Assembly: GCA_017412405.1 (NCBI GenBank)
Contig: JAFPYB010000219.1
Location: 1 to 63,915 of the forward strand
DNA from: Treponema sp.
GTDB lineage: Bacteria > Spirochaetota > Spirochaetia > Treponematales > Treponemataceae
Direction of reading: 5' to 3'
Length of the DNA: 63,915 nt
Below the pieces are notes generated by a model. It was not told the origin of the DNA and did not search any database. It saw only the letters and a program-made list of their open reading frames with translations. How positions within the stretch are numbered: the stretch's first letter is position 1; each line of letters starts with the position of its first letter. Positions 11,441-28,297 of the stretch are shown piece by piece. The position numbers and the translations under genes are program-made.

Positions 11441-14284
11441 TCACTTGGCAAACATTTTCTCAACCTCAGCACGCTTCAGCCGGGCAGCAACACGGGCTGG
11501 AGTCTCGCCGGCCTCATTTTTTGCAACGGGACTCAACTTTCCCAAGGACAGAATGTGCTCCACCACATCTGTGTCGGCGTACTGAGCGGCGTAATGTAGT
11601 ATGGTGTTTTTCTTTTCGTCCGTCTTTGCCGCTCCATACGCCACAATTCCGTCAATGATGCGCCAGTCCTTCGTCTCAAAGGCGCGAACGAGCGGGCAGT
11701 CCCCAGAAAGAGTCCTGGCAAACGGAGAAGCCCCAGCAGAAAGAAGGAACAATGCCGCCACCCGCGACTGGGAAGAAACAGCCCAAAAAAGCGGAGTTTC
11801 CCCAGCATTGTTCGCCGAGTCAAGCAAGAAGCCGCGCTCATGCAGCAGCGACAAAAAAGCGCCATTGACCACATGACGAACAGCTGCATGAACGGCAGTG
11901 TTCCCGTCATCGTCACAGATTCCGCCGTCGCCTCCCAAGACGGAGAGCGACACCAGGGAATCCCGCCTGAGCGACAGGGAAAAAGGCGTGTCACCAGCAT
12001 TGTCATGCGCAAATGGATTTCCGCCCGCGCCACGCACACGAGCAATCAGCTCCGGGGAGGAATGGACGGAGGCCTCGTGGAGGGCAGTCCGCCCCACACT
12101 GTCCTGAACCGACACATCCGCGCCAGAATCAAGAAGAAGGAGGACCACCTCGTCATTCCCAGAGGAAAGAGCTTTCATGAGATTCGTGCGTCCCAGAGAA
12201 TCAACCGTGTTGCAATCCGCCCCAAATGCAATCAAGCTCTGCGCCATTTCCACAGAATTTTTCTCGCACGCCAAGTCCAGTGCCGTCATGCCGTGAGCGT
12301 TCTTGGCGTTCACGTCGCAGCCCAGGGAAACAAGGAATTTTGCCGTCTCCGCCGAGTTCCACCGAACAGCTGCATGGAGCAGCGTGTTCTGTTCATTGTC
12401 TCCGCCGCCTTTCTTGGAATCAAGTTCCGCGCCGTGGCTCAAAAGCAGCTCCAAAGCAGAAACGGAATCTGCTTTAACAGCCGAAAAGAGCGGACTTTCT
12501 CCGGCATTATTCTTTTTTCCTGCTTTTGCTCCGTTTTCAATCAAGTACAAAATCGACTCCAGACATTTCCACTCGGCGGCATAGTGGAGCGGCGTATTCC
12601 CAGAACTGTCGGCGGACAGTATTCGCCCGGGGCGAATGAACCAGTCAAGCATCTCCGCCCCACGCACCAACGCGACCCTGAGCGGCGAATTGTTCAGCTT
12701 GTTAGATGCAAATATGTCGGCATTTTTTGAAAGCAGAAGCTCGCACACATCGCGCCTGTTTTGGGCGGCGGCAACAAGCAGCGCACTGTCTCCGTCATTG
12801 TTCCTTGCGTTCACGTCAAATCCAAGCCCCACCAAATAGGTGATTGCCGAAATCCGCGCTTTTCTTGAGACAGCGACGATGAGCGGAGACGAGCCGTACA
12901 CGTCAGGCCGAGCATCTGCCGCCGTCACCATGAGCCTGAGCATATCGTCACTGGGGGCTGCAAGGGCGAGCGTAAGCGGCGATGAGCCGTGCGAATCATA
13001 CAAATTGCAATCAGCCCCATTCTTCAGATAGAACAAAACATGGTCGCGGTTTTTGTTTGCGACGGCAACTGAAAGCGGCGTAACACCTTGATTGTTTTTC
13101 ACATCAACCAGGGCACCGCTGGAAAGAAAAAATTCCAGGACAGATTTCGGGCAATTGCTGGCTGATGCCACATGGAACACGGTGTTTCCGTCAAAATCAC
13201 CGCGGCGCACATCCGCACCATGCCGAACCAGCATTTCGTAAATGCGGTACTGCTCGTTTCCCGATATTGAAAGCAGGACAGGCGTTTTCCCGTTCTCGCC
13301 CACCGCATTTACATTCGCGCCACGTTCCAAAAGCAGGCGCACCACGTCGCTGTTCCCGCTTCTCACAGCCTCATGCAGCGGCGTATTGTTGTTCTTGTCA
13401 CGAACAGAAAGTATGCTTTCAAGCGACACGTTCGGATTCTCGCGCACAACATACGCCACAATTCCTGTGTGCCCCTGGGTTGCGGCAATGGAAAGCGGCG
13501 TTTGCCCGTCACCAAAGCGAATCATCATGTTCCCGCTTTTTAGGGCATCCTCAAAATACGAAAACGCGCCGCGCACAAGCTCCGAGCCTGCACAGACCAG
13601 CTTTGCCCCAATCCGCACCGAATCGGCGTTCGCCGCATCCTTCCAAGAAAGAGCGAGAGGAATTTGTCCTGCATTGTCCGTGGGCGAAAGCGGCAATTTT
13701 TTTGCGATGTAGTCATCAACGGCAGACTCGTTCCGCGAGCGTGCAATATAATGAAGTATTGTTTGTCCATGTGCATCGACGATGCGGGCAGTCTCGCCAT
13801 TTATCATGCCAGCCATCACGTCCCCGCCTTTTTCAAGCGCAATCTCAATCGCGCTAAGCCCCTCTTCGTCTCTGGCAAAAACGTCATCCCCGATTTTTGA
13901 AAGCACGCTGGCAGCGGCGGCGCAGCGATTGTTCACCGCAATGTGGATTGCCATGTCGCCGCACCTGTTTCGGATTGTCGTATGCGCACCCAGAGAGAGC
14001 AAGTATTCCACCAGCGGAGCGTTATCCATTTCAGCGGCAACATGGAGAACAGTATTTCCAGCAGAATCCACCGAATTCACATTGTCCGAGGTCACCAGTT
14101 CTTTTGCGTGGTCGTACTGGCGGCGGACGATGTAATCCTGCGCCGTGTAGCCGCCTTTTTTCCCGGAGTCGCCCCACCCCCCTTTTCCCGAGCTGACACT
14201 ACTGCCGTACCCTGTCGAAAGACAACTGACAAAAATAAGCGACATAAGCACAATCGGCAATTTTGGCAATCTCAGTTTTTCCAT
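11441..14284 (-). CDS. Large ankyrin-repeat lipoprotein
   Basis: About 20 or more G.TPLH.A-type repeats; lipobox-like IFVSC after a hydrophobic stretch. Confidence 0.9.
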   Translation of the reverse strand: MEKLRLPKLPIVLMSLIFVSCLSTGYGSSVSSGKGGWGDSGKKGGYTAQDYIVRRQYDHAKELVTSDNVNSVDSAGNTVLHVAAEMDNAPLVEYLLSLGAHTTIRNRCGDMAIHIAVNNRCAAAASVLSKIGDDVFARDEEGLSAIEIALEKGGDVMAGMINGETARIVDAHGQTILHYIARSRNESAVDDYIAKKLPLSPTDNAGQIPLALSWKDAANADSVRIGAKLVCAGSELVRGAFSYFEDALKSGNMMIRFGDGQTPLSIAATQGHTGIVAYVVRENPNVSLESILSVRDKNNNTPLHEAVRSGNSDVVRLLLERGANVNAVGENGKTPVLLSISGNEQYRIYEMLVRHGADVRRGDFDGNTVFHVASASNCPKSVLEFFLSSGALVDVKNNQGVTPLSVAVANKNRDHVLFYLKNGADCNLYDSHGSSPLTLALAAPSDDMLRLMVTAADARPDVYGSSPLIVAVSRKARISAITYLVGLGFDVNARNNDGDSALLVAAAQNRRDVCELLLSKNADIFASNKLNNSPLRVALVRGAEMLDWFIRPGRILSADSSGNTPLHYAAEWKCLESILYLIENGAKAGKKNNAGESPLFSAVKADSVSALELLLSHGAELDSKKGGGDNEQNTLLHAAVRWNSAETAKFLVSLGCDVNAKNAHGMTALDLACEKNSVEMAQSLIAFGADCNTVDSLGRTNLMKALSSGNDEVVLLLLDSGADVSVQDSVGRTALHEASVHSSPELIARVRGAGGNPFAHDNAGDTPFSLSLRRDSLVSLSVLGGDGGICDDDGNTAVHAAVRHVVNGAFLSLLHERGFLLDSANNAGETPLFWAVSSQSRVAALFLLSAGASPFARTLSGDCPLVRAFETKDWRIIDGIVAYGAAKTDEKKNTILHYAAQYADTDVVEHILSLGKLSPVAKNEAGETPARVAARLKRAEVEKMFAK

Positions 14285-14328
14285 ACGCTCTCCTGCTCTC
14301 TTTGTTAAACACCCCATACCTTATCGGA

Positions 14329-14781
14329 TTACTTAGACGTGTTTTCCAGATTCGCATGGAGTTTTTCAAGCAAGTACAAAAGGTTCTCTTTCTCCGCCTC
14401 CGAAAAATCTCGATAGGCACAGTCAAGAAGCTCGTTGGAAAGGCTGTGCGTCGTCTCATTGTACGCCCTGCCTTTTTCCGTCAACGAAATCCATCGTTTT
14501 CGGCTGTCAGAATCATCTTTCTCGATTTTTACAAGTTCTGCCTTTTCCAATTTTTTCACCAGCACCGTCGCCGTAGATTTGTCCCGATTGATTTTTTGCG
14601 AAAGCTCCCCCATCGTCAAACGCCCAGACTTTGAAAGGCAGAACAAGATGAATCCGTGGGACGAGACAAAATCAGGAAGTCCTGAGCCGCTCATTTTTCT
14701 CTGCAAAAAATCAGCAGAACACGAATGAATTTTTGATATTAAAGAAAGAACTGAAGAAACTGAATAATTCATCTCACCCAC
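14329..14781 (-). CDS. MarR family transcriptional regulator
   Basis: TMGELS..I.RDKSTAT.LVKKLE, DSR...ISLTEKG. Confidence 0.92.
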   Translation of the reverse strand: MGEMNYSVSSVLSLISKIHSCSADFLQRKMSGSGLPDFVSSHGFILFCLSKSGRLTMGELSQKINRDKSTATVLVKKLEKAELVKIEKDDSDSRKRWISLTEKGRAYNETTHSLSNELLDCAYRDFSEAEKENLLYLLEKLHANLENTSK

Positions 14782-14864: not shown

Positions 14865-15509
14865 CTAATCCGTTTTCTGCTGAGCAGGTCTAATATACTT
14901 TCCTTTTTTAGTTTTTTCCATGAACGTAAAGCTCGCATAATTCTTGTAAAAATCCGATTCATTTTTGTTGTTTCCAACAAAACCAGTGTCATTGTACAAA
15001 AAGGCGCGTACACAAATCCCCTGATTTTTCTTGTAGAAAAACTCAATTTCCATGTACTTGTAGCCCTCGGCAAACAAAGAATTTGGCGAAACAACAGACA
15101 CAAAAGACCCCATATCTGCATTGAACGTTTTTTTAACAACAAGTTCTTTGTAATTTCCGCGCTTGTCAACATGCAACCGTGTTCCGGCAAGATTCATCAA
15201 CACAAGAGCCTCGTACATCGTAACGCTCGCTTTCTCATTCACCCCAGTTTCCTTGAAGAGAAGATACCGAACTTCACCATCATGACCATTGAACGTTGCC
15301 CGGTACGCACGGTTCACGCCCTCATTCCGCAAAGCTTCCCCCACGTCGGCGTTAAGTTCAAATGCCGGAAGCTGGCGATAGAGGACTTCAAACGCCTCGT
15401 CATCGTTGGACGGCTCAAAATTGAGCGAGACAATATCTGCACTGGCAAAATGCGCTGCGCCCAAAAGCACGAGGAGCATGGGCGCAACTTTTCTGAGAAA
15501 AAGATTCAT
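14865..15509 (-). CDS. Secreted hypothetical protein, paralog B
   Basis: Signal peptide ending ASA; colinear similarity to 15513..16145. Confidence 0.8.
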   Translation of the reverse strand: MNLFLRKVAPMLLVLLGAAHFASADIVSLNFEPSNDDEAFEVLYRQLPAFELNADVGEALRNEGVNRAYRATFNGHDGEVRYLLFKETGVNEKASVTMYEALVLMNLAGTRLHVDKRGNYKELVVKKTFNADMGSFVSVVSPNSLFAEGYKYMEIEFFYKKNQGICVRAFLYNDTGFVGNNKNESDFYKNYASFTFMEKTKKGKYIRPAQQKTD

Positions 15510-15512
15510 ACT

Positions 15513-16145
15513 TTATTTTACAGCACGTTTTATGTACTTTCCAGCCTTATCTTTTTCCATGAACTTGAATGATTTGTAATATTTGGCCCAATCAGATTTT
15601 GTGTCAAACTGACCATCTTTTATCCCAAAAAATTCAGGCTCATTGAACAGCGTTGTACGCACGCAAAGCCCCTGCCCCTTCTTGTAAAAACATTCCACGC
15701 TGGCAAACAGATAGCCGCCGGCAAATCGCGACTGGGGGTTCATTATGAAATAGCTCAACCCAGAAGTTCCATTGAAATTATTCGCAACATCCGACTCACT
15801 GAATGCATTCTGCCCCTTCACACAACTGGGTTCTCCCGCAATATTGAGCGCAATCGTATATGCGTATGATGAAATCGAGAAATCAGTGTTTTTCCCCGTT
15901 TCCTTGAAAAGCGAATACCGGATTTCTCCCTCACAGCCGTTGAAAGTTGCCTTGAACGCCTGATTCACACCCACTTCCTGCTGATTTTCATCAGGAACAT
16001 CATATATTTCAAACGACGGGAATTTATAATACATAACATCGAATTCTTCTTCCGACCGGGTTGGCTCAAAATTCGTCGAAGCAATCTTTGCCGAGGCAAC
16101 ACCCATGCACACAAAAAACATCAATAAACCAAAAACTTTTTTCAT
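15513..16145 (-). CDS. Secreted hypothetical protein, paralog A
   Basis: Signal peptide; shares NFEP, ATFNG..GE.RY.LFKETG, FYKK.QG.CVR and FMEK.K.GKYI with its neighbour. Confidence 0.8.
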   Translation of the reverse strand: MKKVFGLLMFFVCMGVASAKIASTNFEPTRSEEEFDVMYYKFPSFEIYDVPDENQQEVGVNQAFKATFNGCEGEIRYSLFKETGKNTDFSISSYAYTIALNIAGEPSCVKGQNAFSESDVANNFNGTSGLSYFIMNPQSRFAGGYLFASVECFYKKGQGLCVRTTLFNEPEFFGIKDGQFDTKSDWAKYYKSFKFMEKDKAGKYIKRAVK

Positions 16146-16373
16146 AAAACATCTTCTCCTATTTTTTGATTTTCGCAGTATAGCAAAAATGATTCTTAAA
16201 ATAATATTAATTCCATCAAAAAAACTTTTTTTTCAAAATCGAAAAATCCATGGTGGAGTTTTTGGAGAAAAACACCGTCATTTTTCGCACAGAAGTGAGG
16301 AAGTGCCGATTGACACGCCCGAAAGAAACAAGCGTTTTCCAAACACTTCCGTGACAAATTGCCCAGATTGCTG

Positions 16374-17685
16374 CTAAGCATTTTTGCTTTTGCCTTTACC
16401 AGTATTATTGACGTGTTCGGCAAAAGCCTTATTAACAGCCCGGCTCCGTCTCCAATCGTTAATAATTTCAATTCCAGTGCGAAACTCTTTCTTTTCATTT
16501 CGATAAATGATATCCATTCGATCGATTGTACTCATCGGAACAGCAACTCGACCGCCCACCTTTATCCAACCAACCTCACCGCGCATAGAGTCTGGACGGA
16601 TATCGTAATCATTCACTGATGTTCCTTTTATGTACACATACGTTTGACCATCTCTCTCAAGAGTTTCGCCCGTCAATGTAACAAAATGATAATTATACCC
16701 AGTGATTACATCTTTATCGTCTTTTTTCGCAGAGTATGCAACTTGCGCAACAATAACAACATCAATTTCTTTTTCTACCTGCTCTTGTATAATGCTCGTG
16801 ATAATGCTTTCTTTCGTCGATGTGGCCTGCCCAAACATCGCAATTTCACTCTTTTGTTTGCTGGCAACTATTTCGTCGATTGATATATCATCACTTCTAG
16901 ATCCAAATAGTGTTTCATACGTGAAACCAAAACCATTGTACAAAGCCTTAAAATCAATATTTGCACCTTCAAAATACTCTTCGCACTCGTTTATGTCTTT
17001 TGGTGTCACCGTACTATATGTCAATGCCGACACAACCTGAGCCACCGCCGTCACAGCACAACCCTCCTGGCTCATAAGCTTTTCTGACCCTCCAATATGA
17101 TCATTTCCCCACCTGGAATCGTTCATGAACTGCTCGGTTGTTTCCACAACCCACAATCCATTAGGATCCACATAGCTCACAGGATTTCCCATGCAGTACG
17201 AATACCAGTTCGTCCCGTCCCGAATCGGGTCTTCCGAGGAAAAACGACCGAGCGCACAAGAATAGTCGCGGAAGCCAAAATCGTATAGACCAGTCCGAGC
17301 GTCGTACCGCTTGCCGACAAAGCCGAACGAAGCGCTTCCACCGCCCAGAGGAGAGCCGAACACGTCGAAATCATATGATTCCACAAGCCCGTTTTCCCCG
17401 CAAGCCGCCGAAACCGAAGACAGCGAATCTGTCATGAGCGCGCATGAAAAGTAGCCGTCAGCCCCAGAGCCAAGCCGAGTGAGCGACACAGGAACACATT
17501 CTGATGAGCGGGGGATATAGACCGGCACATTCGCCGAGTCCGCGCTTTGCCGGGTCTGGCTTCGGCTGGAAGGAGACTGGGCGGCTCCTGTTCGCCCCGA
17601 AAGCAATTCGTCCCCAGAATCCATGCCTGAGCTGCGCAAATACCTGAACTCTGGAACAGCCCCCGAGCGAGAGGCGCGGACGGCT
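16374..17685 (-). pseudogene. 5'-truncated Rhs protein: Rhs-associated core plus C39-like peptidase tip
   Basis: YDFDVFG, FVGKRYD..TGLYDFGFRDY, GRFSSEDPIRDG.NWY.YC..NP..YVDPNGL; tip has D.RW...GCAVTAVA...HFV; no YD-repeat body or convincing start. Confidence 0.8.
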
Positions 17686-18061
17686 CGCTCGTCAGGACGG
17701 AGGGCGAAACGGAATTGTCGCTTGCAACACGGAACAAGCGCGTGTCGCTCCAATCTCCGTTCGTCGCGTCGAATGCGCTCGCCCTATCCAAAAGAACAAG
17801 AATGGTGTTGCCGGCCGAAAGGAAGGAGCGGGCCTCCTCCATTTCGTTCAAGTCCGAAATGGCTGCGCTTTCCAGATTGTTGTCCGCCGCCATGTACACG
17901 ATGAATGTCCATTCCGCGTTCCCAGATGATTCAGGCTCGGGCTTTGGCGCTTTTACCGCCCCGCCGGAAGACGGCTCGTCAAAAAGCGCGGAGCAAGATG
18001 CCCCCACAAAGGCAAAAATCACAAGCACAAGAGCGGCGGCGTACAGGAACCTAGTCTTCAT
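17432..18061 (-). pseudogene. Truncated clostripain-family (C11) peptidase lipoprotein
   Basis: Lipobox VGASC, WTFIVYMAADNNLE...DLNEME...LLDR; similarity lost after about 17685, catalytic His/Cys absent. Confidence 0.8.
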
Positions 18062-18515
18062 GGGCAGTTCCTTCGCTCGCGGCGTGCATTCCGAACGGAT
18101 CCGACCACTCAGAACCGTCCGCATAGGAAATTTTTTTCACATAGAAAAAATCAAGAATGAAAGTTTCCTTCGGAACACGCGACAGATACGAGTCCAAGCT
18201 CACGCAAAAATCAGCCTTCGTCTGGGCAGGGATTGGCGCATCGAACCGCTTCACAATGCAGTTCGAGCCGATGAACGGGTTCTGGCCGTCGCTGTCGTAC
18301 ACCAAAAAACTCACCGTGAACGAGGAAATATCCTTCGCGCTGTCGTTGTACAGCGTGAAATTTGCGCCCGCAAAATCGTATGCGCCTGTCTTTTCGCCAA
18401 TTTCCACGCTGTTTTCCGCCACAATGTAAGGACAGTCGATTATGTCCATAGACGAGCAGGAAGTTGCGACAAAAAGCGAAATCACCAAAAACAAAAGCGT
18501 AAAAAGTCGAATCAT
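18051..18515 (-). CDS. Hypothetical lipoprotein
   Basis: Lipobox VATSC; overlaps both neighbours; beta-rich sequence. Confidence 0.75.
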   Translation of the reverse strand: MIRLFTLLFLVISLFVATSCSSMDIIDCPYIVAENSVEIGEKTGAYDFAGANFTLYNDSAKDISSFTVSFLVYDSDGQNPFIGSNCIVKRFDAPIPAQTKADFCVSLDSYLSRVPKETFILDFFYVKKISYADGSEWSDPFGMHAASEGTAHED

Positions 18516-19060
18516 CGTGCTGTTTCCTCCGTCCGTTTTTCACCAACCATGTCAAAAATCTGCTGCTTCTTCCGCTCGCTGGGATTTTTGCAGTAGGACA
18601 CTAATTTTTCATAGAACAAAAAGCTTTTTTCGCCCCGGTTGTACTTGCTCTCTTTTTGAAGCATTTTCTCAGCCTCCTTGAACTGCCCGTCACGAATCAG
18701 CTCCTCCACTTTCGCGTACACGCTGGAAATCGGCTCAATCTGCGCCGTGAAAATCCGCCTTCTGTCCTTGAACGACACAGTTTGCTCAAAGGAACTCCAG
18801 CCTTTTCCGCCTCCAGAAACTCTGTAAGTTCCGGCTTTCAATTCGGGAATCAGGAACATTCCGTTTATGCCAGTGACAGCGGAATGAACAGCCCCAAAAT
18901 CAATGTGGTAATTTTCAACGGCCTCTCCGTGTGGGCCGCAAATTCGCCCAGTACAGGCAGCCGTTCCCTCAAACTTTGTGGATCTGCATGAATTCAATGC
19001 AAGAAATGCCAGAACAAATGCCCATATCGATATGTGCCATGATACTGTCTTACTGCGCAC
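18512..19060 (-). CDS. Lipoprotein with carboxypeptidase-regulatory-like domain and helical tail
   Basis: GTG start with GGAGG RBS, lipobox LNSC, T..NG.F.IPELKAGTY.V pattern. Confidence 0.7.
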   Translation of the reverse strand: MRSKTVSWHISIWAFVLAFLALNSCRSTKFEGTAACTGRICGPHGEAVENYHIDFGAVHSAVTGINGMFLIPELKAGTYRVSGGGKGWSSFEQTVSFKDRRRIFTAQIEPISSVYAKVEELIRDGQFKEAEKMLQKESKYNRGEKSFLFYEKLVSYCKNPSERKKQQIFDMVGEKRTEETAR

Positions 19061-20330
19061 GTTCTTCCTCCATCTTGATTTTTCCGTCATTCGATTTGTA
19101 ATAGGTGAACACCCGCCCGTCCTTTGCCACGATTGAGCCAAGCCGATTGCCCTCCATGCTCCTTCTGTGCGGGGCAATCGTATACACCGCCGCGCCAGCT
19201 TTTTTCTCCGAAGGGCGTGTCTGAGGCTCCTCGGGGACATTGAACCGGCACAACACAGGCGCATACTGTGCGCACACCGAAAGCGGAGTCATGGCTTCGT
19301 CCTCAGTAGAAGACGAGCCGCTGGAGAACGACACCTTGACTGCCGCATAGTGCGCACCGTTTTCCACGCGGATTGATTTTTCTCTCAAGCCGTGGGCACG
19401 GGAGCACGCCGCCAAAATCCCAAGCGCGCTGGAAAAATTTTCTCCGCTGCACAAAAATGAAATCGAGCATGAATCTTCCGCCACCTGCTCGCCCAAAATG
19501 GCGCACCCGGCAGAAAGAAGCCCTGTGCGCACGGCGGGAACGAAACTCTTTCCCTCAGGTCTTTTGCCATAAGCCCACAGGGAGTTCGCCGAGTCTCCAA
19601 CCGCAAGAAGACCTCCGTGGTGGCTTTTGTCATATCCGCCGTATCCAGAAAGCTCAGAAAGCTCGGCGCGACGAATTTTCAGCCCGTCGTTGTGAATCGT
19701 AAAATTCGGCTCCCCGTTTTTGTACGAAACCTGACAGTATTTTGCCCCAGCTATCTCTTCGCTCGGGCAGCCGGACACATCGAATTCGCACACATTCCCA
19801 CTCCATTCCATTGAATTGATTCTTCCGCCGTTCTTGCTCACGGACGAAAACACGAGAGTGAATAATTCATGAGGTGCCAAAAACACATAATCCTCCTTTG
19901 CGCACTCAGCCTGAGACGATAAAAGCCGATTTTCCTCCACGCCGGAAACAGGCAGCCTTGCCTTCGTTCCCATGTGCCATCCAACAGCCGCCCCTGCCAA
20001 CAGCACGCACACAATGCCAAGTTTCACGAAATCTTCTTTTTTCCGAAAAACACACCGATTTCCGTGTCCCTCCAAGAACAGCCGCCGCGACGGGAACTTG
20101 TTCCGATACTCAAAAAGCTTCGCCTTTTCCATGACCACAACTTCCGCAAAAAGATTCCGATGTTTCATCTGCACTTTCGTGTCAAAGCAATTCGACGACG
20201 AAAAGCAGGGATGGTGCTTTTCAAGCTCCCTCAGCAAAAAATTCCGCCCATTCCGCCTTGAAAGCGACCGAAGCGAAATCGGAATCGAATACAACTCGTA
20301 ATCATTCTGTTTCACAAATACTTTTTTCAT
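19050..20330 (-). CDS. Bitopic membrane protein, candidate GspL/M- or PilMN-like alignment subunit
   Basis: One TM segment (LGIVCVLLAGAAVGW), GAGGTG RBS, position after the pseudopilins; family assignment is positional only. Confidence 0.55.
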   Translation of the reverse strand: MKKVFVKQNDYELYSIPISLRSLSRRNGRNFLLRELEKHHPCFSSSNCFDTKVQMKHRNLFAEVVVMEKAKLFEYRNKFPSRRLFLEGHGNRCVFRKKEDFVKLGIVCVLLAGAAVGWHMGTKARLPVSGVEENRLLSSQAECAKEDYVFLAPHELFTLVFSSVSKNGGRINSMEWSGNVCEFDVSGCPSEEIAGAKYCQVSYKNGEPNFTIHNDGLKIRRAELSELSGYGGYDKSHHGGLLAVGDSANSLWAYGKRPEGKSFVPAVRTGLLSAGCAILGEQVAEDSCSISFLCSGENFSSALGILAACSRAHGLREKSIRVENGAHYAAVKVSFSSGSSSTEDEAMTPLSVCAQYAPVLCRFNVPEEPQTRPSEKKAGAAVYTIAPHRRSMEGNRLGSIVAKDGRVFTYYKSNDGKIKMEEERAQ

Positions 20331-20331
20331 G

Positions 20332-20674
20332 TCACCTCTTGTTTTCATTGAGCGCATACGCCTCTTTCCCGTCCCATTCGACTTTCCACAGCGCACGCGC
20401 ATCCTTGACCCCGATTTTTTTCACGCAGATTGATGAAAGACCACATTCTGCGCGGCACAATCCCAGCCATTGAGAAAAATCGCTTTCACACACGTTCGCT
20501 TTTTTTTCCGCACAGCTGGCAAAACGACTCTGCAATGAACATATCCCTGTGCATAATCCGCTCGTTCATGTCGTTCACGGTTTTAAGCCTTGCGACCGGC
20601 TTTGCCATCTGCACGAACAAAGCCGAAAAAAGCGGCAGGACAATCATCAACGCCAGCACTTCACCAAGTTTCAA
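20332..20674 (-). pseudogene. Minor pilin-like gene split at an A8 run
   Basis: N-terminus with Glu5 and hydrophobic helix (KLGEVLALMIVL); deleting one A at 20500-20507 fuses the two ORFs into 113 aa. Confidence 0.6.
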
Positions 20675-20918
20675 AGTCGATTTCTCCCCTGTTTTCCCAT
20701 TCAGATTTTATATGCGCCGTGGACGAATCAAGCTCCGCATAAAACCGGCTGGATTTTTTCTCGATGACCTGCCGCCTTGTGCGCTCAAACTGCGCCCAGC
20801 CCACCATCAGCCCACTTGCCACGAACATGACCAAAAGAGCAGAGCAGAGGGAAAATCCCGCATCCCATCTGCCGCCCGCCATTTTTTTTGGGTCAATCCC
20901 GCCACGAAACAATGTCAT
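20661..20918 (-). CDS. Minor pseudopilin-like protein
   Basis: Class III signal AG|FSLCSALLVMFVASGL lacking Glu5; GGAGG RBS. Confidence 0.6.
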   Translation of the reverse strand: MTLFRGGIDPKKMAGGRWDAGFSLCSALLVMFVASGLMVGWAQFERTRRQVIEKKSSRFYAELDSSTAHIKSEWENRGEIDFETW

Positions 20919-21408
20919 TCTCGCCTCCCCGCACACAATCTTCCCCGGCGCACACAATGGCGAACGAAAGTCCATCCGGCACATCGACAGGCATGAGTGC
21001 GCTCCCCTGCCTGAAGTATTCGTAGGGCGTTCCCCACGGGTCCACGGGAACAGTCCTGTCCGTGTACGGCCCGTTCCACCCCGCGGGAACAGGAGCAAGC
21101 AGGGGCTTTTCCCACAATGCCCCAAGCCCCTGCTCGTCCGTGGGAAACACGCCGCAATCCACATAGTACGAATTGAGCGCGACTTTGAACGCCTCAATCT
21201 GGTTCCTTGCCGACACAACACGGGCCTTCTTCACAAGACGATTGACCGCCACCCCGACCTGCGAGGCGAGAATTGCCGTCACAACAAGGACGGCAAGGGT
21301 CTCAACAAAGGTGAATCCGCCATCCGCCCCATCGTTCGGGCGGTTTCCCCTATTTCGCTTTTTCAAGCCTCCAGCATATGCTTTGATTTTTTGAATCATC
21401 TTCCTCAT
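20893..21408 (-). CDS. gspG: Type II secretion major pseudopilin
   Basis: G|FTFVETL, ALNSYYVDCG.FPT.EQGL.AL, W.GPY and VP.DPWG.PY.Y. Confidence 0.9.
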   Translation of the reverse strand: MRKMIQKIKAYAGGLKKRNRGNRPNDGADGGFTFVETLAVLVVTAILASQVGVAVNRLVKKARVVSARNQIEAFKVALNSYYVDCGVFPTDEQGLGALWEKPLLAPVPAGWNGPYTDRTVPVDPWGTPYEYFRQGSALMPVDVPDGLSFAIVCAGEDCVRGGENDIVSWRD

Positions 21409-21431
21409 ACAAATCCTCGTTTTTCGCATAA

Positions 21432-22341
21432 TCACAAAAAGTCCATGCCGCCTGTCACAAATGGAAGCACGATGTCTTTCAGCAAAAGCACAAAATACAC
21501 TGCCGCCGCGCACATCAAAAGCGGCTGCTCAATGGCGACAGCCGCCGCCTTGAGCCGTTCCCGTTGTCTGGCACACCTCCAAATGAGATGAAACAATACG
21601 CGCGGCAGCTGGAAATCGCGCTTCGGAAAGGCACACGGAAAACACATCGCTCACAACCCCACCTGCGCTGATTCCCGCGCTCATTCTGGAAAATGCCCGC
21701 GCCACCCGCTTTTGCCCTCCCACAGCAGCCCCGGCAGAATCAATCGCCTGAACAAGCGGCACGCCACAATCCGTCAAAAACGAAAGCGCATTCAGCATTT
21801 CAACAAGCGCACTCCTCCCCATGATTTTTGAGAAAACCACCGCCAGCACAAGAACGAATAGCGCAAAAAACGCGACGGCCATTCCAATGCTTTTCCATGC
21901 AGCAGAGCGATACATCTCCAGCCTCTCCCCAGAAAAAAGCGAGCCACCCACTGTGTTCATGAGAAACACGCTCGCCCCGAACGCCAAGACAGCCACGCAA
22001 AGCGGGTACAAAAGTGCCGCCCAGAACTGCTCACGCGCCTTTTTTGAAGCGGCTAGCGCTTTTTCCAAATGCGACATAATCCCACACAGATTTCCGTTCT
22101 CCTCGGAAAGCGCGACAAACGACGCATACCACTCGGGAAAACGCATTGCCGTTGCACTGGAAAACGCGAAGGAAAGGCTGCTTCCCCCAAGCAGCGCGTC
22201 TTTCGCCTCCCCCGCAGCCCTACGCACCCGAAGGGAAAGGCGCGTGTTCTCTTGAATGAGCGAAAGTGCCTTTCCAGCAGGAATCCCCGCCCCCACACAA
22301 TCCGAAAAACTCCTGGTAAACTCAGCCAGCTCTTTTTTCAT
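21432..22341 (-). pseudogene. gspF: T2SS/T4P inner-membrane platform protein, frameshifted near the 3' end
   Basis: Two T2SSF-like repeats (GIP..AL, EENGNL, ALLYP); last TM AIEQPLLM...IVLP lies in another frame after about 21565. Confidence 0.75.
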
Positions 22342-23635
22342 CAACGCCTCCGTCACATGGAATGCATTCCCCACGAATCAACTCATCGAACACGTTCCGC
22401 GCCACCTCCCCATGCTCAAGGCGCACACTGTCGAACATATCGCGTCCGGCAGAAAAAACCTCAGCCACAAGGCGATTCCCGTCCACAAGCCGCTGGGACA
22501 CAATTCCCCGCAGCACGGAAAAAAGCTCGTTCCAACCGCAGCCCAAATCGGTCAGCCGCAGCATAGTCTCGTAAAAGCCCGATGTATGCACGGTGGCAAT
22601 CACCAGATGCCCGGTGAGGGCGGCGCGAATCACTGTCTGCGCCGTCGTCTCGTCCCTAATCTCGCCAACAAAAATCACGTCCGGGTCTTGCCGGAACACG
22701 CGCCGCAAACATTCTGCAAAGCCCATGCCTATTCCGTCGTTCACCGCAATCTGGGTGATTTCAGGGAGCACATACTCAACGGGATCCTCAATCGTGATGA
22801 TTTTTTTCCCGCTCTCCCCAGAGCTGCCTCCCATGCGCCCTATTTCCACAAGCAAACTTGCAGCCGTGGTGGACTTTCCGCTTCCCGTCGGACCTGAAAT
22901 CAAAATCAAGCCGTTCTCGTTTTGAGCCATCGATTCAAGAGCCGAAAGCTGCCGCCCGGAAAAACCAAGCCGCGAAAGCTCCAGCGGCAGGCGCATTGGG
23001 TCAAGGAGCCGCAACACCGCCGATTCGCTTTCCTCAAAGGACACGGACGGCACGATTGAAGAGCGGACGAACACGGCGCATTGACCCCCGCCACGGAACA
23101 CGAACGCCCCGTCTTGGGCACGCCTCTTCTCCATCACGTTGAGCTTTGAAAGGACTTTTATCCTCCGTACAAGCTCCACATGCCGCTCCCTGGAAAGCGC
23201 AAGCACAGTCCGCATCCTGCCGCCCACACGGAAGCGTATGCGCGTCTCCTCAATGTGAACATCAGTCGCCCCCGCGCCCACAGCCTCTTTCAACACCGAG
23301 TCCAAAAGCTGCACCGTGTCCTTCACATAGGAATCAAGCGCGTTTTTTCCCGCCTCCCCATGGATTTCTTCCGCACTTCCCTGGCTCTTGCCCCATTCCC
23401 CGCTGGAGCCGTACTGTCGCACCACCGCCCGCTGGAACTCCTCCTCGCCCACCTGCCTGAACGAAACATTCCCATGCCCGCCGTTCCGCCTGAAAAACCG
23501 CTCGCAGGATTTTTCAAGCCGTGAGCGCACCTGAGCATCAATGCCGCGCACGGAGCCGAACACAATATCCGTCCCGTGGCTTTCCAGCACAACAACATCA
23601 TTGAATATCGAAAAACTGCTTGAAAGCGAAAACAT
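22322..23635 (-). CDS. gspE: T2SS/T4P assembly ATPase
   Basis: TDVHIE, QDG, Walker A GPTGSGKS, TIEDPVE, RQDPDVI.VGEIRD and TGHLVIATVH. Confidence 0.92.
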   Translation of the reverse strand: MFSLSSSFSIFNDVVVLESHGTDIVFGSVRGIDAQVRSRLEKSCERFFRRNGGHGNVSFRQVGEEEFQRAVVRQYGSSGEWGKSQGSAEEIHGEAGKNALDSYVKDTVQLLDSVLKEAVGAGATDVHIEETRIRFRVGGRMRTVLALSRERHVELVRRIKVLSKLNVMEKRRAQDGAFVFRGGGQCAVFVRSSIVPSVSFEESESAVLRLLDPMRLPLELSRLGFSGRQLSALESMAQNENGLILISGPTGSGKSTTAASLLVEIGRMGGSSGESGKKIITIEDPVEYVLPEITQIAVNDGIGMGFAECLRRVFRQDPDVIFVGEIRDETTAQTVIRAALTGHLVIATVHTSGFYETMLRLTDLGCGWNELFSVLRGIVSQRLVDGNRLVAEVFSAGRDMFDSVRLEHGEVARNVFDELIRGECIPCDGGVDEKRAG

Positions 23636-23638
23636 GAT

Positions 23639-25636
23639 TCAGCTCCCCACAAATTCCCGAACAAGCTGGCGGGCGTGCGGCAAAAAATCATCCGCCCCGT
23701 CACTCTGGCCAAAAATCTCAGCCGACGGAACAAGGTAAATCACCAGCTCCGTCTTTTCCGACGATTTTGATTTTGCCTTGAACAAGTTGCCAAGCAGAGG
23801 AATACGAGAAAGAATCGGTGTCCTAGAAACAGCCTCCGTCTCTTCGTTTTGGATAAGTCCGCTCAAAATGACAGGCTCCCCGGACTTTGCCCGCACTTCG
23901 GTCGTAATCACTTTCTCGCTGGAAGGCGGCGGGTTTCCTGTCTTAGAACTCAAATCAGTCCCCTGCCGCGACACGCTGGCGGTGATTTTGCTCGTAATCA
24001 TGCCGTCGCCCGTCACAATACCGGTCACTTCAAGCTTCAATCCAGAAACGATTTCCTTCGTCACGCCTGAGTAGATTGGCTCGCCCGTCTCAGGGTCAAG
24101 ATTGTTGTCCCGATAGCGGTATGTGTTCGTGTTCTGGAAATTGATGGTGCTCCCGCTCACTCCGTTCAGCGTGGTGTCGGCAAAGACTTTTGCCTTGTTC
24201 CCGGTGATTGCGGCCTGCAGCTCCGCCGCAAAATTCAGCCCGAACACTCCCACCACATCAAGATTCAAGTCAAGGACACTCCCCACCGTAGTGGAAACAG
24301 CCGTCCTGTCGCCAAGCTTCATGCGGTCAATGCGGAAATTGGGCCGCCACTCGCTGCCGTCCGTCGTCTGGTACTGCATGATAAGCACATCGTAGCTCAC
24401 GCGGGAAACAGGGCGGTCGAACTCGTCCATGCGGCAAAGCAAATGCTCATATGCGGCATCCGTTCCAGTAAAGTAAAAGCTGTCTCCGCGCCCGGAATCC
24501 GTTATTTCAGATTTGTTCACGAATGGCGGAAGATTCGCAAGGAAGTCTTTTGTGCGAACGTATTTGAGCTGAACAAGGTGCGACTCGTTCCGCACGTCAG
24601 ACTGGGCGACAAATGCCAAAAGCTCCGCCGATTTTTCATCATCGCTCAAATACAAGAATTTTCCGCCCTCGTTCACGCTTATAGTCTCAATCTCTGGAAA
24701 ACGCCGCGCACAAAGCGAAAGAAACGCCGATGTGGAAAGATGCTTGAGGCAACATTCCCGCCATGATTTTCCTTTCTCGCCCATGAGACGCTTGTTCTTC
24801 GACGGCACAATGTAGTAGATTCCGTCGGACAGGACGCACTCCGCGTTCGCCTGTGCGCACAGCGTCTGGAGCGTCCTGTCAAAATCTTTTCCCGCAAACG
24901 AGGCTCGGAGGATTTTTGTGTCCGTCTGCGCGGAAAAACAGAATTCTTTTCCAGCCAGCGCACTGAGCTTTTCGCACACAAGGGACAAAGGCGCGTTTTG
25001 GATATTGCACCTAAAAAGCTCTTTCCCTCCGTTTTCTTCTATAAATATGTCGATTTTTCCACCAACTGCTCCGTCAAGCGACCGAGATGAAACCCTGGCA
25101 ACATGGTAGCGCGTGGGATTTTCCTTTTTCAGCTCAAAGCCCGCGCACAACCCCGCAATCCGCCTGAAAATCTCCTCGCAGTCGCACATTCCCGTGTGGA
25201 TGCTCACCTTTACCGATGGAAGACTCTCATAAGTCACACACAAGCCGCTTTTCACCGCCATCTTCTCAAAAAGCTGGAACGGCGTAACATCGTATCCGTC
25301 AAGGGAATAAAGCCCATTTTCTCCCTGCACGATTTTGATTCTGCTCACCGTCCACCGATTTTCGCTTTTTTCCACATAAAGCCGCGCCGATTTCAAGAAC
25401 GCATCGAAGGTGTCGTCAAAATCATCGCCCGTGGAACGGAAGTCGGTCTTCCCCGAAACAGTGTCGTCGTGGGAAATCGGTATTCCCTTGAACAATGATA
25501 TGGAATAAAGAATCTCGCCGATGTCTCGGTCAACGAACTCGAAGGATTCCCCGCCAAGCGGAAGCAACCATGCGCACAAAAAGAAGGAGTGCGCCATCAA
25601 AGAAAACAATTTTTTCATGTCCTTTTTCTCCCACAT
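23639..25636 (-). CDS. gspD: Secretin (GspD/PilQ family)
   Basis: Signal peptide; C-terminal GEP.ILSGLI...TPILSRIPLLGNLFK...TELVIYLVP secretin signature. Confidence 0.9.
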   Translation of the reverse strand: MWEKKDMKKLFSLMAHSFFLCAWLLPLGGESFEFVDRDIGEILYSISLFKGIPISHDDTVSGKTDFRSTGDDFDDTFDAFLKSARLYVEKSENRWTVSRIKIVQGENGLYSLDGYDVTPFQLFEKMAVKSGLCVTYESLPSVKVSIHTGMCDCEEIFRRIAGLCAGFELKKENPTRYHVARVSSRSLDGAVGGKIDIFIEENGGKELFRCNIQNAPLSLVCEKLSALAGKEFCFSAQTDTKILRASFAGKDFDRTLQTLCAQANAECVLSDGIYYIVPSKNKRLMGEKGKSWRECCLKHLSTSAFLSLCARRFPEIETISVNEGGKFLYLSDDEKSAELLAFVAQSDVRNESHLVQLKYVRTKDFLANLPPFVNKSEITDSGRGDSFYFTGTDAAYEHLLCRMDEFDRPVSRVSYDVLIMQYQTTDGSEWRPNFRIDRMKLGDRTAVSTTVGSVLDLNLDVVGVFGLNFAAELQAAITGNKAKVFADTTLNGVSGSTINFQNTNTYRYRDNNLDPETGEPIYSGVTKEIVSGLKLEVTGIVTGDGMITSKITASVSRQGTDLSSKTGNPPPSSEKVITTEVRAKSGEPVILSGLIQNEETEAVSRTPILSRIPLLGNLFKAKSKSSEKTELVIYLVPSAEIFGQSDGADDFLPHARQLVREFVGS

Positions 25637-25831
25637 ATAAAGGGGCAGAGAATTTTCAAATTTGACAGCGAAAATTTATAATTTTTTGTTATATTTTGAT
25701 TTTTCATCGATTTTTTTGACTCGGCTTCATCAAGTTTTTTTCACTGACGTTATTGACAAACATATCTTTATGTTTTAAGGTTCTATATTGTGTTTATGTG
25801 CACACATATCTTTGAGAGGAGTCATTTAAAA

Positions 25832-26542
25832 ATGAAAAAAATCATTGCTACAATAGCAACTCTTTTTGCAGCAACTTCATTACTTACGGCAGAATTGCCA
25901 TCAGTTATACAAGAGCGCGATCTTACAGTTGGAGGCAGAATCGGTCTCGGTCTCAACTTCTTCGACTTCAACTGTGGCGGCGATGTGGGAGAAGACATCA
26001 AGCTCATGCCTGGCTTCGGACTCAATGCTTTTGCCAATATGCCAATCTCAACGCTCGCAACGCTTCCGGAGTACCTGGAGCCGCTGGGAGTTCAGGTTGA
26101 ATTGGGACTCCACGTTCACAACATCGCAACAAACGACAAAAAAGACGAGGATGCAAAAGGCCACTACTTCACTCTGGACATTCCAATCCTTGCAACATAC
26201 AAGCTCGATGTGAACGACATGATTTCCGTCACACCGCTTCTCGGACCCAAGTTCTCATTCACATTGGGAAAAGTTTACAACGACGGATACCTTCTTGATG
26301 ACTTCGCACTCAAATCACCGTTCAACTTCGGCATTGAAGTTGGCGCAACAGCAGCAATCAACATCATCGGACCGGGACAGATTCTCGTGGACATCAGATA
26401 CAACAGAGATTTCACAAAAATGACTGGAGACGGCGAGTTCAAAGACGCTTCCAAAAATACTTTTGACGACCCAGTGCTTGGTTCCGGTCAGTCAATCGAC
26501 ATTTCAGTGGGCTACCAGATGAAACTGAACGATTTGTTCTAA
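25832..26542 (+). CDS. Outer-membrane beta-barrel protein, paralog of 452..1093
   Basis: Shared LDIP.L.TYK, GPK.SF.LGK, PFNFG, RYNRDFTK and SVGY motifs; GAGGAG RBS. Confidence 0.78.
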   Translation: MKKIIATIATLFAATSLLTAELPSVIQERDLTVGGRIGLGLNFFDFNCGGDVGEDIKLMPGFGLNAFANMPISTLATLPEYLEPLGVQVELGLHVHNIATNDKKDEDAKGHYFTLDIPILATYKLDVNDMISVTPLLGPKFSFTLGKVYNDGYLLDDFALKSPFNFGIEVGATAAINIIGPGQILVDIRYNRDFTKMTGDGEFKDASKNTFDDPVLGSGQSIDISVGYQMKLNDLF

Positions 26543-26629
26543 GATTTCGCCCATGCAGGCTCTCTAGGTTTTCAGCCTGCTGGTCAGCACATTGCAAAAA
26601 TCCAGCTTGCATCTGATTGAACCATCTGG

Positions 26630-26662
26630 AAAACAGGATTCACGACGAATCCTGTTTTTTTT
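26630..26662 (+). terminator. Rho-independent terminator
   Basis: AAAACAGGATTC-acgac-GAATCCTGTTTT plus T run. Confidence 0.75.
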
Positions 26663-26698
26663 GTCACTTCGTTTTGCACATGAGCCGAAAATCAAATC

Positions 26699-28297
26699 AT
26701 GAAAAAGACAGCCTTTTTTTCAGTTTTGCTTGCATCGTTTTTTTTATCCAAGCCCCTTTTCTCCCAGAGCGTGGAGCTGGTCTACAACGGCTCAAAAAGC
26801 TATTCCCTGACAGAACGCACCGATTTGCGAAAATACGAGAACGGAAAATACATCGGCATGACAAAGCGCGAAGTCCATTCGTTCATAAACACCACCGATT
26901 CCTACGACACAACGCCGCGCTATGCACGGGACAGCTGGTTCGACGGAAATTTCTACGTCGTGGAGGAGCGCAAGAACAATTCGCTCAACAAAATCGACGG
27001 CATTTACGACTCCATTCCATCCGTGTTCCACATTGCGCCCAACGGCGAGCTTACCATGTACGAGGATCACGGCTTTCCAAGCTTCAGGAGCTTTCCGGCG
27101 TTTCCGTCCAGGAAAGTGAGCGTGGGCGACACATGGACAGCCCAGGCGGAGCGCGCCGTGGATCCCAAAAGCGACGGAAACCTCACCAGGCTCAAAATCG
27201 AAGTGCGCTACACGCTGGAAGGCGAGACGGTTCTGGACGGGCAGGAAGTCTACAAGATAACGGCACTGTGGCAGACGCTCTACGGCATGAGCTGGAAGGA
27301 CGCGAAGGGAGACCCGAACCTGCTCAAGGCACGGGGCGGGCACAAGGCGAACATCATGGTTCTCAAAAAAACAGGCGAGCCGATTCTTGTGGTGGACACC
27401 GTGGACGAAACATTCGTCTACCGCGACAAGACCGAAATCAACTACAAAGGCACTATATCGCTTTTCATAAAATATCCTCCGCGCATGGATTCTGACAAAA
27501 TCATCGCCGCCCTCTCGGACATTGCCACAGTGAAAAAAGGCGGTGCAAAACCAATGGGCGGTGGAAGCACAGGCTCTATCACGTCCACAAAGGCGAACAG
27601 GGACTCAAAAAAGAAAAATGCCGACGGAAGCGGGGATAAAAAATCAGCAGACAAGGACGCTGGCAAAACCGATGATTCACCATCCGCCGAAAGCAAAGCC
27701 TCTTCCGCAAAGCCTGGAACTGACGAGTCCTCGCCAAAAACGGCGGGCGACAGCGGAACAACGGGCAAGGACGAGGAGAACTCGGCAAAAAATCGGCACA
27801 AAAAAACAGGTTCCGGCAAAGACGGCAGGGAAGCGCAAGACGAAGAAAACGCGCCGGTGTCGGTGTTCGGCATTGACGAGGAGAACGCTGCCGCCATGGA
27901 AATCCAGTTCACGGCAGCCAAGAACGACATGATTGTGGAGGAGACTTCCGCCGGAATACGCCTCACCGTGCAGAACGTGCAGTTTCAGGCCGACAGCGCG
28001 GAACTCATGCTCGGCGCGGAAGGAAACCGCCTGGACGAAATTGCCCGCGTCCTCAAGATGGCCGGAAACTCCCAGATTCTCATAGAGGGGCACACCGCGT
28101 CAACCGGGCGGCCGGCGGGGGAACTTTCCCTTTCCCAGGAGCGGGCGAGAAAAATCGCGAACGAGCTTGTGAGCCGCGGCATCCAAAAAGAGAACATAAT
28201 CGTGCGCGGCTGGGGCGGAACAAAGCCAATCGCGCCGAACACGAACAATGCGGGAAAAGCGCTGAACCGTCGTGTAGAAATAACGATTTTGCAATAG
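26699..28297 (+). CDS. OmpA-family peptidoglycan-binding protein
   Basis: C-terminal F..DSA.L, IEGHTA, LSQERA and NRRVEITIL; long charged low-complexity linker. Confidence 0.88.
   Translation: MKKTAFFSVLLASFFLSKPLFSQSVELVYNGSKSYSLTERTDLRKYENGKYIGMTKREVHSFINTTDSYDTTPRYARDSWFDGNFYVVEERKNNSLNKIDGIYDSIPSVFHIAPNGELTMYEDHGFPSFRSFPAFPSRKVSVGDTWTAQAERAVDPKSDGNLTRLKIEVRYTLEGETVLDGQEVYKITALWQTLYGMSWKDAKGDPNLLKARGGHKANIMVLKKTGEPILVVDTVDETFVYRDKTEINYKGTISLFIKYPPRMDSDKIIAALSDIATVKKGGAKPMGGGSTGSITSTKANRDSKKKNADGSGDKKSADKDAGKTDDSPSAESKASSAKPGTDESSPKTAGDSGTTGKDEENSAKNRHKKTGSGKDGREAQDEENAPVSVFGIDEENAAAMEIQFTAAKNDMIVEETSAGIRLTVQNVQFQADSAELMLGAEGNRLDEIARVLKMAGNSQILIEGHTASTGRPAGELSLSQERARKIANELVSRGIQKENIIVRGWGGTKPIAPNTNNAGKALNRRVEITILQ

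Follow-up and report, generated by a model that had tools for sequence, protein, structure and literature searches.

One experimental precedent is available for Rhs activity that depends on a secretin, by way of a general type II secretion system (T2SS). Bcn-A of Xanthomonas perforans is a Gram-negative Rhs/WapA-like antibacterial protein of 1,398 amino acids (aa) whose activity is found in the supernatant and disappears when the secretin gene xpsD is mutated, and its immunity gene lies in the same cluster (PMC7259588). Signal-peptide RHS toxins were sorted by Zhang et al. (2012) into 'T2SS/Sec-dependent' and 'TcdB/TcaC' classes; the class combining a signal peptide with an SpvB propeller includes spirochaetes, often with a ZU5 domain, and a Tox-PL-C39 papain tip is listed. 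In the portion of that survey cited here, the Sec class is tabulated without signature neighbours, the SpvB class has TcdB only, and the word 'secretin' occurs 0 times (PMC3482391). Bacterial teneurin-like proteins are YD shells that carry a Sec signal and a toxic tip and have immunity genes; their authors, in the part of the report cited here, saw no obvious delivery machinery for them (PMC13018210). Here we describe a minus-strand run of genes in a contig of 63,915 nucleotides from a Treponema sp. (JAFPYB010000219.1 of assembly GCA_017412405.1; hereafter the window), in which a T2SS-like machine adjoins a C11 (clostripain-family) peptidase and an Rhs protein.

Two Rhs architectures are found with this secretin clade in treponemes, type A, to which the operon in the window belongs, and type B. 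Unlike the classes of Zhang et al. as tabulated, both are operonic with a secretin; type A lies outside the SpvB-type (TcdB/TcaC) class, with ZU5 in 0 of 5 proteins, and type B falls within it. In the part of its report cited here, Bcn-A uses the general Xps T2SS and not a machine whose genes lie with the toxin's, and no C11 peptidase is mentioned in the cluster; in contrast to the teneurin-like proteins, a candidate machine is co-encoded in treponemes. This machine resembles the classical T2SS, a member of the type IV filament superfamily (Gsp/Pul/Xcp; Denise et al. 2019, PMC6668835), in having a secretin, one ATPase, a platform protein, a GspG-type pseudopilin and a prepilin peptidase, but its GspF is divergent and short (~310 aa), type A has no recognisable GspC, and the treponemal loci add extra lipoproteins and C11, a cargo gene within the operon and a motor-less derivative. 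The Rhs protein resembles effectors delivered by a type VI secretion system (T6SS; PDB 7q97, 8h8a, 8qjb) in its DUF6531 start, YD core, DPxG motif, variable tip and downstream gene, but a Sec signal peptide replaces the PAAR/VgrG-binding N-terminus, the core is larger, and 60 of 61 treponemal genomes have no T6SS sheath (the sheath protein TssC was found in one, at G055:C4:42378-43265).

The operon is real and conserved and appears to be undescribed, a variant of T2SS-type export and possibly a new motor-less class. The original prediction had been aware of no such system in spirochaetes, and we found no co-encoded dedicated Rhs export system in a literature search that left subscription journals largely uncovered; the supplements of Denise et al. 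and Zhang et al. may list such loci. The name Treponema did not occur in those supplementary files of Denise et al. that were searched. In the part cited here, a 2021 survey of treponeme genomes credits Treponema ruminis with neither RHS/YD repeats nor a complete secretion system (PMC8049484); its complete genome does hold the operon and a 1,931-aa Rhs frame.

We propose, with a probability of roughly 0.72, that this conserved T2SS-like operon, present in many treponemes of the gut and mouth, exports the adjoining signal-peptide Rhs protein, a predicted antibacterial toxin, through its secretin, and we regard dedicated Rhs export as well supported by genomic context. A GTDB scan with the secretin alignment confirmed 229 stretches, of which the best 80 were kept. 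Twenty-four of these 80 loci were dropped for having less than 9.5 kb downstream, and the remaining 56 were scored with profiles built from related loci, some of which are duplicated among the 80. C11 was present in 55 of the 56, and Rhs lay downstream in 46 and on one side or the other in 48. The original prediction had suggested this neighbourhood search and had named intact operons without Rhs or clostripain neighbours as the finding that would speak against it; intact operons instead keep both C11 and a full Rhs, so the idea of export stands. Five of the eight loci without an adjoining Rhs were checked, and all five genomes have Rhs cores elsewhere, four of them in frames of 1,802-2,142 aa. 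The named cultured carriers of the operon are T. ruminis RU1, T. bryantii NK4A124 and Treponema sp. JC4, whose Rhs frames are 1,931, 1,968 and 2,027 aa long.

The secretin also tracks Rhs across genomes. Counting Rhs cores above the cut-off, we found Rhs in 26 of 28 secretin-positive versus 3 of 32 secretin-negative genomes among 60 relatives, and in 58 of 63 versus 28 of 83 among 146 family genomes at least 95% complete; the genomes are kin and not independent, and no p-value is given. Twelve of the 28 Rhs-positive, secretin-negative genomes were opened, and nine show only short cassettes in the stretches fetched. Conversely, among the five secretin-positive family genomes scored as Rhs-negative, one has an Rhs cut by a contig end (G315), one a decayed remnant (G361), two reach the contig end before any cargo (G350, G369) and one carries a different giant protein (G338). 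Of the 372 matches, 150 were listed, and these include 30 Rhs frames of at least 1,800 aa; 21 of the 30 have a secretin no more than 25 kb away, and 26 belong to genomes that are secretin-positive. The operon type of C11 was seen in 14 of 60 genomes, every one secretin-positive, although 12 of these 14 built the model.

Type A Rhs proteins are ~2,000 aa long, with DUF6531 and RHS repeats (in intact relatives, PF05593 and PF20148). Judged by a crude rule on charge and hydrophobicity and not by SignalP, 45 of 47 have a Sec-like signal peptide, and eight full-length DUF6531-Rhs proteins have no PAAR match, in agreement with the earlier suspicion that these are not T6SS cargo. In 33 of 33, an invariant GDPV follows a variable segment of ~120-340 aa; long, low-complexity linkers occur in the N-termini, and their alignment revealed no conserved domain before GDPV. 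The C11 protein of relatives is a lipoprotein with a clostripain match at E 1e-40, the catalytic Cys in 12 of 12 and the catalytic His in 11 of 12. Some operon C11 proteins (L213, L214, L217, L194) reach 700-1,050 aa and bear InlB B-repeat stalks.

The 38 Rhs tips that we compared form 17 clusters. Tips above Pfam cut-offs match M23, NlpC/P60, Amidase_2 and DUF4329, so that several are assigned to cell-wall hydrolases; below the cut-offs are YkuD-like, C39-like and second NlpC/P60 tips, and 26 tips are unmatched. The window tip (260 aa, 16377-17156, minus strand) is a member of the largest cluster, which takes in 15 of 38 and has an invariant Cys and His. Sequence search of this tip family against the PDB gave nothing meaningful. 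Its structure model (pLDDT 88) is of papain fold, matching papain-fold peptidases with Z up to 11.2, among them C39 domains, staphopain and pseudomurein endoisopeptidase; the match to BtaeB, a T6SS effector of Bacteroides, is weaker. Sharing a fold does not reveal the substrate. Genes next to tips have a hydrophobic N-terminus in 29 of 34 cases, some being probably unrelated neighbours. The two secreted paralogues behind the window tip, S1 (15513..16145) and S2 (14865..15509), are 43% identical and are predicted to be periplasmic immunity proteins, S2 the second; S1-family genes also stand behind related tips in L031 and L203. Tips and downstream genes thus fit toxins that would act in the periplasm, paired with putative periplasmic immunity proteins. 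Genes behind YkuD-like or related tips (L037:2989-3882, L182, L187, L191) carry a PF25302 F5/8-type domain and are a candidate immunity family.

In the window itself, the predicted gene order, minus strand and tight packing from 25636 to 14865 were borne out, including the two paralogous secreted proteins at the end. The run opens with an intact, GspD-like secretin of 665 aa (23639..25636; PF00263, E 1e-27, 97 bits, below the GspD-specific cut-off), whose structure model matches the InvG, PulD, GspD and PilQ secretins. Next comes a GspE/PilB-like assembly ATPase (22322..23635; PF00437, E 4e-73, 246 bits), which alone matches the GspE profile in the source assembly (2.3 Mb, 79% complete, closest named loci Treponema); its top NCBIfam model is GspE, yet under the cut-off. 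Both proteins fall under every T2SS-specific cut-off and also match PilQ, HofQ and ComGA models. They are followed by the inner-membrane platform protein GspF (21432..22341; PF00482, E 5e-22) and the major pseudopilin GspG (20893..21408), which has a class III signal (G|FTFVE; alignment A1) and scores 94.4 bits with TIGR01710 against a cut-off of 88.85.

Two small pilin-like genes, candidates for GspH-K, have no family matches in the window and weak N_methyl matches in relatives: the first (20661..20882) encodes ~73 aa and has a homologue in the closest relative, L082, and the second (20332..20674) aligns to L082 in split form. In relatives, the second minor pilin (L033:6036-6365 and equivalents) often begins M-K/R-F/L-T/S-E/D with no leader before the hydrophobic helix and may therefore need no prepilin peptidase. 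The bitopic protein (19050..20330), kept in all long type A loci, is a candidate GspL/PilN-like assembly factor; its Atlas leads are PilN (0.83) and GspL (0.82), both below 0.9, relatives give PilN and T2SSM matches below the cut-offs, and hhalign relates it to its type B counterpart at a probability of 87.6. Family search found no GspC match in the window type, as predicted; a prepilin peptidase, also unrecognised in the window, is present elsewhere in the genome (G000:C32, PF01478 just above cut-off) and lies directly before the secretin in many relatives. Lipoprotein LP1 (18512..19060) is a beta-sandwich, with TPR in relatives, and a candidate pilotin; it represents the one accessory family common to all three architectures (LP1 versus its counterpart LP1b, hhalign probability 99.7). 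Lipoprotein LP2 (18051..18515), with a DUF5780-like immunoglobulin (Ig) fold, travels with C11. The apparent lack of T6SS parts held up for the VgrG OB-fold and TssC, which were not found in the 79%-complete genome; PAAR and Hcp were not searched genome-wide.

The window copy is a broken operon, judged against its intact relatives, with toxin, protease and two machine genes damaged. Relative to L031, ~6.2 kb are missing, fusing the first ~125 C11 codons to the last ~90 Rhs-core codons. Similarity to intact C11 ends at 17684, and similarity to Rhs starts at about 17440. The predicted C11 lipoprotein is thus right as to family and lipoprotein nature, yet only an N-terminal fragment is left (17683..18061, Peptidase_C11 profile positions 1-49 of 359), its catalytic part and His/Cys dyad deleted. 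Similarly, the predicted Rhs core with a variable tip exists as a remnant (16374..17682; TIGR03696, 69.7 bits; alignment A4) that keeps the core end with its DPxG motif and the tip; it is the sole Rhs core over cut-off in the source genome. An assembly artefact was considered and rejected for the junction (17683..17691, a 9-base overlap): contigs from X1 and X2, two runs of one study, span it, and X1 is possibly the source run. Runs X4 and X6, from two other studies, diverge from the window at 17683 and 17691. Creation of the C11-Rhs adjacency by the deletion was likewise rejected, since intact relatives keep the neighbourhood. Both gspF and pilin-like gene 2 are frameshifted relative to L082. 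At position 20500, within the latter, X4 and X6 have one base fewer; near 21553, beyond which the last segment of gspF is out of frame in the window and in a single frame in L082, X4 departs, X1 and X2 agree with the window and X6 has no cover. Because run contigs depart at these lesions, we read them as changes in a strain of the species that lost toxin and protease and bears two machine lesions; the run contigs are unphased, and the evidence concerns one lineage.

In type B loci, a secretin of the same clade is accompanied by a coiled-coil membrane protein, a protein resembling a beta-barrel and two different lipoproteins, and C11 is absent. Their Rhs proteins reach ~3,400 aa and contain SpvB, FG-GAP and TcdB_midN domains. 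ZU5 matches occur in 9 of 10 type B N-termini (four over cut-off) versus none of the five of type A. An HFTDM motif is invariant in 8 of 8 aligned type B N-termini, and an HF-S/T motif may be the ZU5 cut site. An N-terminal ZU5 is described as a releasing autopeptidase by Zhang et al. (PMC3482391). Accessory genes switch with the cargo: LP2 and C11 accompany DUF6531-Rhs, and the barrel and two other lipoproteins accompany ZU5-SpvB-Rhs. By hhalign, LP2 and C11 have no detectable relationship to the type B lipoproteins.

Seven genomes (G273, G238, G291, G194, G331, G325 and G326, five of them single-contig) have a locus that keeps LP1b, the coiled-coil protein, the barrel, the lipoproteins, the Rhs and a secretin of 400 aa; genes for ATPase, platform and pilin are missing from it. 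The spirochaete GspG profile matched nothing in these seven genomes and did match three controls; PF00437 exceeded its cut-off once, in a 331-aa frame of G325 (87 bits) far from the locus. The Rhs of G326 is fragmented, and the barrel genes of G331 have stops. Sources name the short motor-less secretin in T. denticola, T. putidum and T. pedis. In a quick tree of 61 secretins, architecture clusters: the motor-less group forms a single branch (100), and the C11 type falls inside one 26-row branch (97). The cassette order (L177:1899-16859, L069, L067, L178, L179, L180, L181, L226) is LP1b, coiled-coil protein, barrel, lipoprotein, 400-aa secretin, lipoprotein and a ZU5-SpvB Rhs of 3,200-3,300 aa, which is in fragments in L180 and L226; orphan tip cassettes come after it. 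An intermediate locus (L047, G016:C75) combines a shortened 534-aa secretin with a type B cassette and lacks motor genes; its genome also has a full type A machine elsewhere.

Taking the three architectures together, we tentatively suggest, at somewhat less than even odds, an overlooked treponemal secretin-based toxin export pathway with interchangeable cargo modules, motor-free in oral and skin treponemes, where the 400-aa secretin, the barrel, the coiled-coil membrane protein and three lipoproteins would alone export a 3,300-aa Rhs cage. If true, this would add a new kind of secretion system, one free of a motor, and would bear on how secretins work. The original prediction identified a real run; the non-functional state of this copy, the second architecture, the motor-less form and the Xanthomonas precedent formed no part of it.

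In the mechanism that we envisage, Sec would move the ~2,000-aa Rhs into the periplasm, where it would fold into a beta-cage enclosing the self-cleaved tip while a periplasmic immunity protein shields the producer. The GspE/F/G pseudopilus would then drive the cage through the secretin, with LP1 a possible pilotin, and the C11 lipoprotein would probably cleave the variable N-terminal segment, releasing or maturing the cage; finally, the target of the tip would be the cell wall or periplasm in rival bacteria. That C11 acts as the N-terminal processor is suggested because ZU5-bearing Rhs proteins come without an operon C11 and C11-linked Rhs proteins without ZU5, whose built-in activity would do the same release job in type B. 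We give this maturase step an even chance. The role of the secretin is supported by its remaining with Rhs even where the motor is gone. Entry of the tip into the target, passage of so large a cage and the drive of the motor-less form are not accounted for by the proposal.

Several observations weigh against export of Rhs by this machine as we propose it. The operon, signal peptide, Rhs core with DPxG, variable tips and predicted exported genes behind the tips can be read from the DNA; export and toxicity we infer from genes. The kinship of the counted genomes bears on every co-occurrence figure. Full-length Rhs frames without a secretin match occur in G118 (a single contig carrying two of them), G386 and G410 (fragmented, with 9% contamination) and count against strict secretin dependence. 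In G118, one locus (L162) has a full-length type B Rhs, LP1b and one lipoprotein, with two other genes replacing secretin and barrel. As regards C11, one copy (L042) has no catalytic His, no conserved Arg/Lys cut site was seen in Rhs N-termini, and one locus (L055) has a DUF6531-Rhs and no C11 in the operon. Decay of machine and toxin together, seen where the strain that lost its Rhs also has two broken machine genes, is known from one lineage only.

In G051, G141 and G104 this secretin clade is present without Rhs, and at further loci its neighbours are other large exported proteins, for example an alpha-1,3-glucanase (L064) and a third cargo-like class of Ig/TIG-rich proteins of 1,800-2,600+ aa (L049:14070-20003, L057, L208:12119-19999). 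Therefore the machine is not Rhs-only across the phylum, and a broader T2SS-like machine of spirochaetes has probably been specialised for Rhs export at the level of the family. These neighbours could also belong to a general-purpose spirochaete T2SS for many large surface proteins, with Rhs one cargo among them whose gene lies beside it by chance; T2SS has been reported in Spirochaetes (Denise et al. 2019, PMC6668835), and in family f19 the canonical secretin is present in 45 of 45 genomes and Rhs in 35 of 45, not adjacent in the rows inspected (distances were not computed). We consider this unlikely, since within the treponemal family the secretin is patchy and tracks Rhs (58 of 63), accessory genes change with the Rhs type, and the machine decays along with the toxin. 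Family f24 has neither canonical secretin nor Rhs (0 of 34 genomes), and three genomes of the distant family f18 (L062, L063, L072) hold this secretin clade plus the canonical one.

Two other explanations concern what the filament does. Instead of being released, Rhs might be displayed by the machine at the cell surface or at the tip of a filament, where it would serve in adhesion or contact-dependent killing, as the long N-terminal linkers, the lipoprotein partners and the stalks on some C11 proteins could indicate. YD proteins of T. denticola, including the 3,320-aa TDE1558, have been noted as possible adhesins (PMC3747143), and a microarray table has TDE1558-1563 changing together. Such display would still require the secretin, the major pilin is GspG-type, and no PilT-like paralogue was found in the 79%-complete genome, where the GspE profile matches one protein only; we judge it rather improbable. 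The sub-cut-off T2SS scores of secretin and ATPase, and their matches to PilQ, HofQ and ComGA models, would also suit a locus for DNA uptake, or some other type IV filament locus, in which an unrelated toxin cassette hitch-hikes. However, the tie to the secretin is seen for each of two Rhs classes that are unrelated to one another, secretin and Rhs are kept in cassettes without pilin or ATPase, and Rhs was found elsewhere in all five checked genomes whose C11 operon had lost the adjoining one, which makes a hitch-hiker very improbable.

Export of Rhs through the operon's own secretin would give signal-peptide Rhs toxins a concrete route across the outer membrane, one otherwise assigned by default or left unexplained in the papers cited here, and suggests that rumen, gut, oral and skin treponemes may fight neighbours without a T6SS. 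Beyond the operon, the window holds a MarR regulator and a 958-aa ankyrin-repeat lipoprotein (11441-14781), which have no match in the operon loci of relatives. Upstream of the secretin (25790-28297) are a divergent outer-membrane barrel (TDE1717-like) and an OmpA-domain protein. The same genome also encodes a second, stand-alone C11 peptidase of 807 aa (L060:8082-10502, G000:C57).

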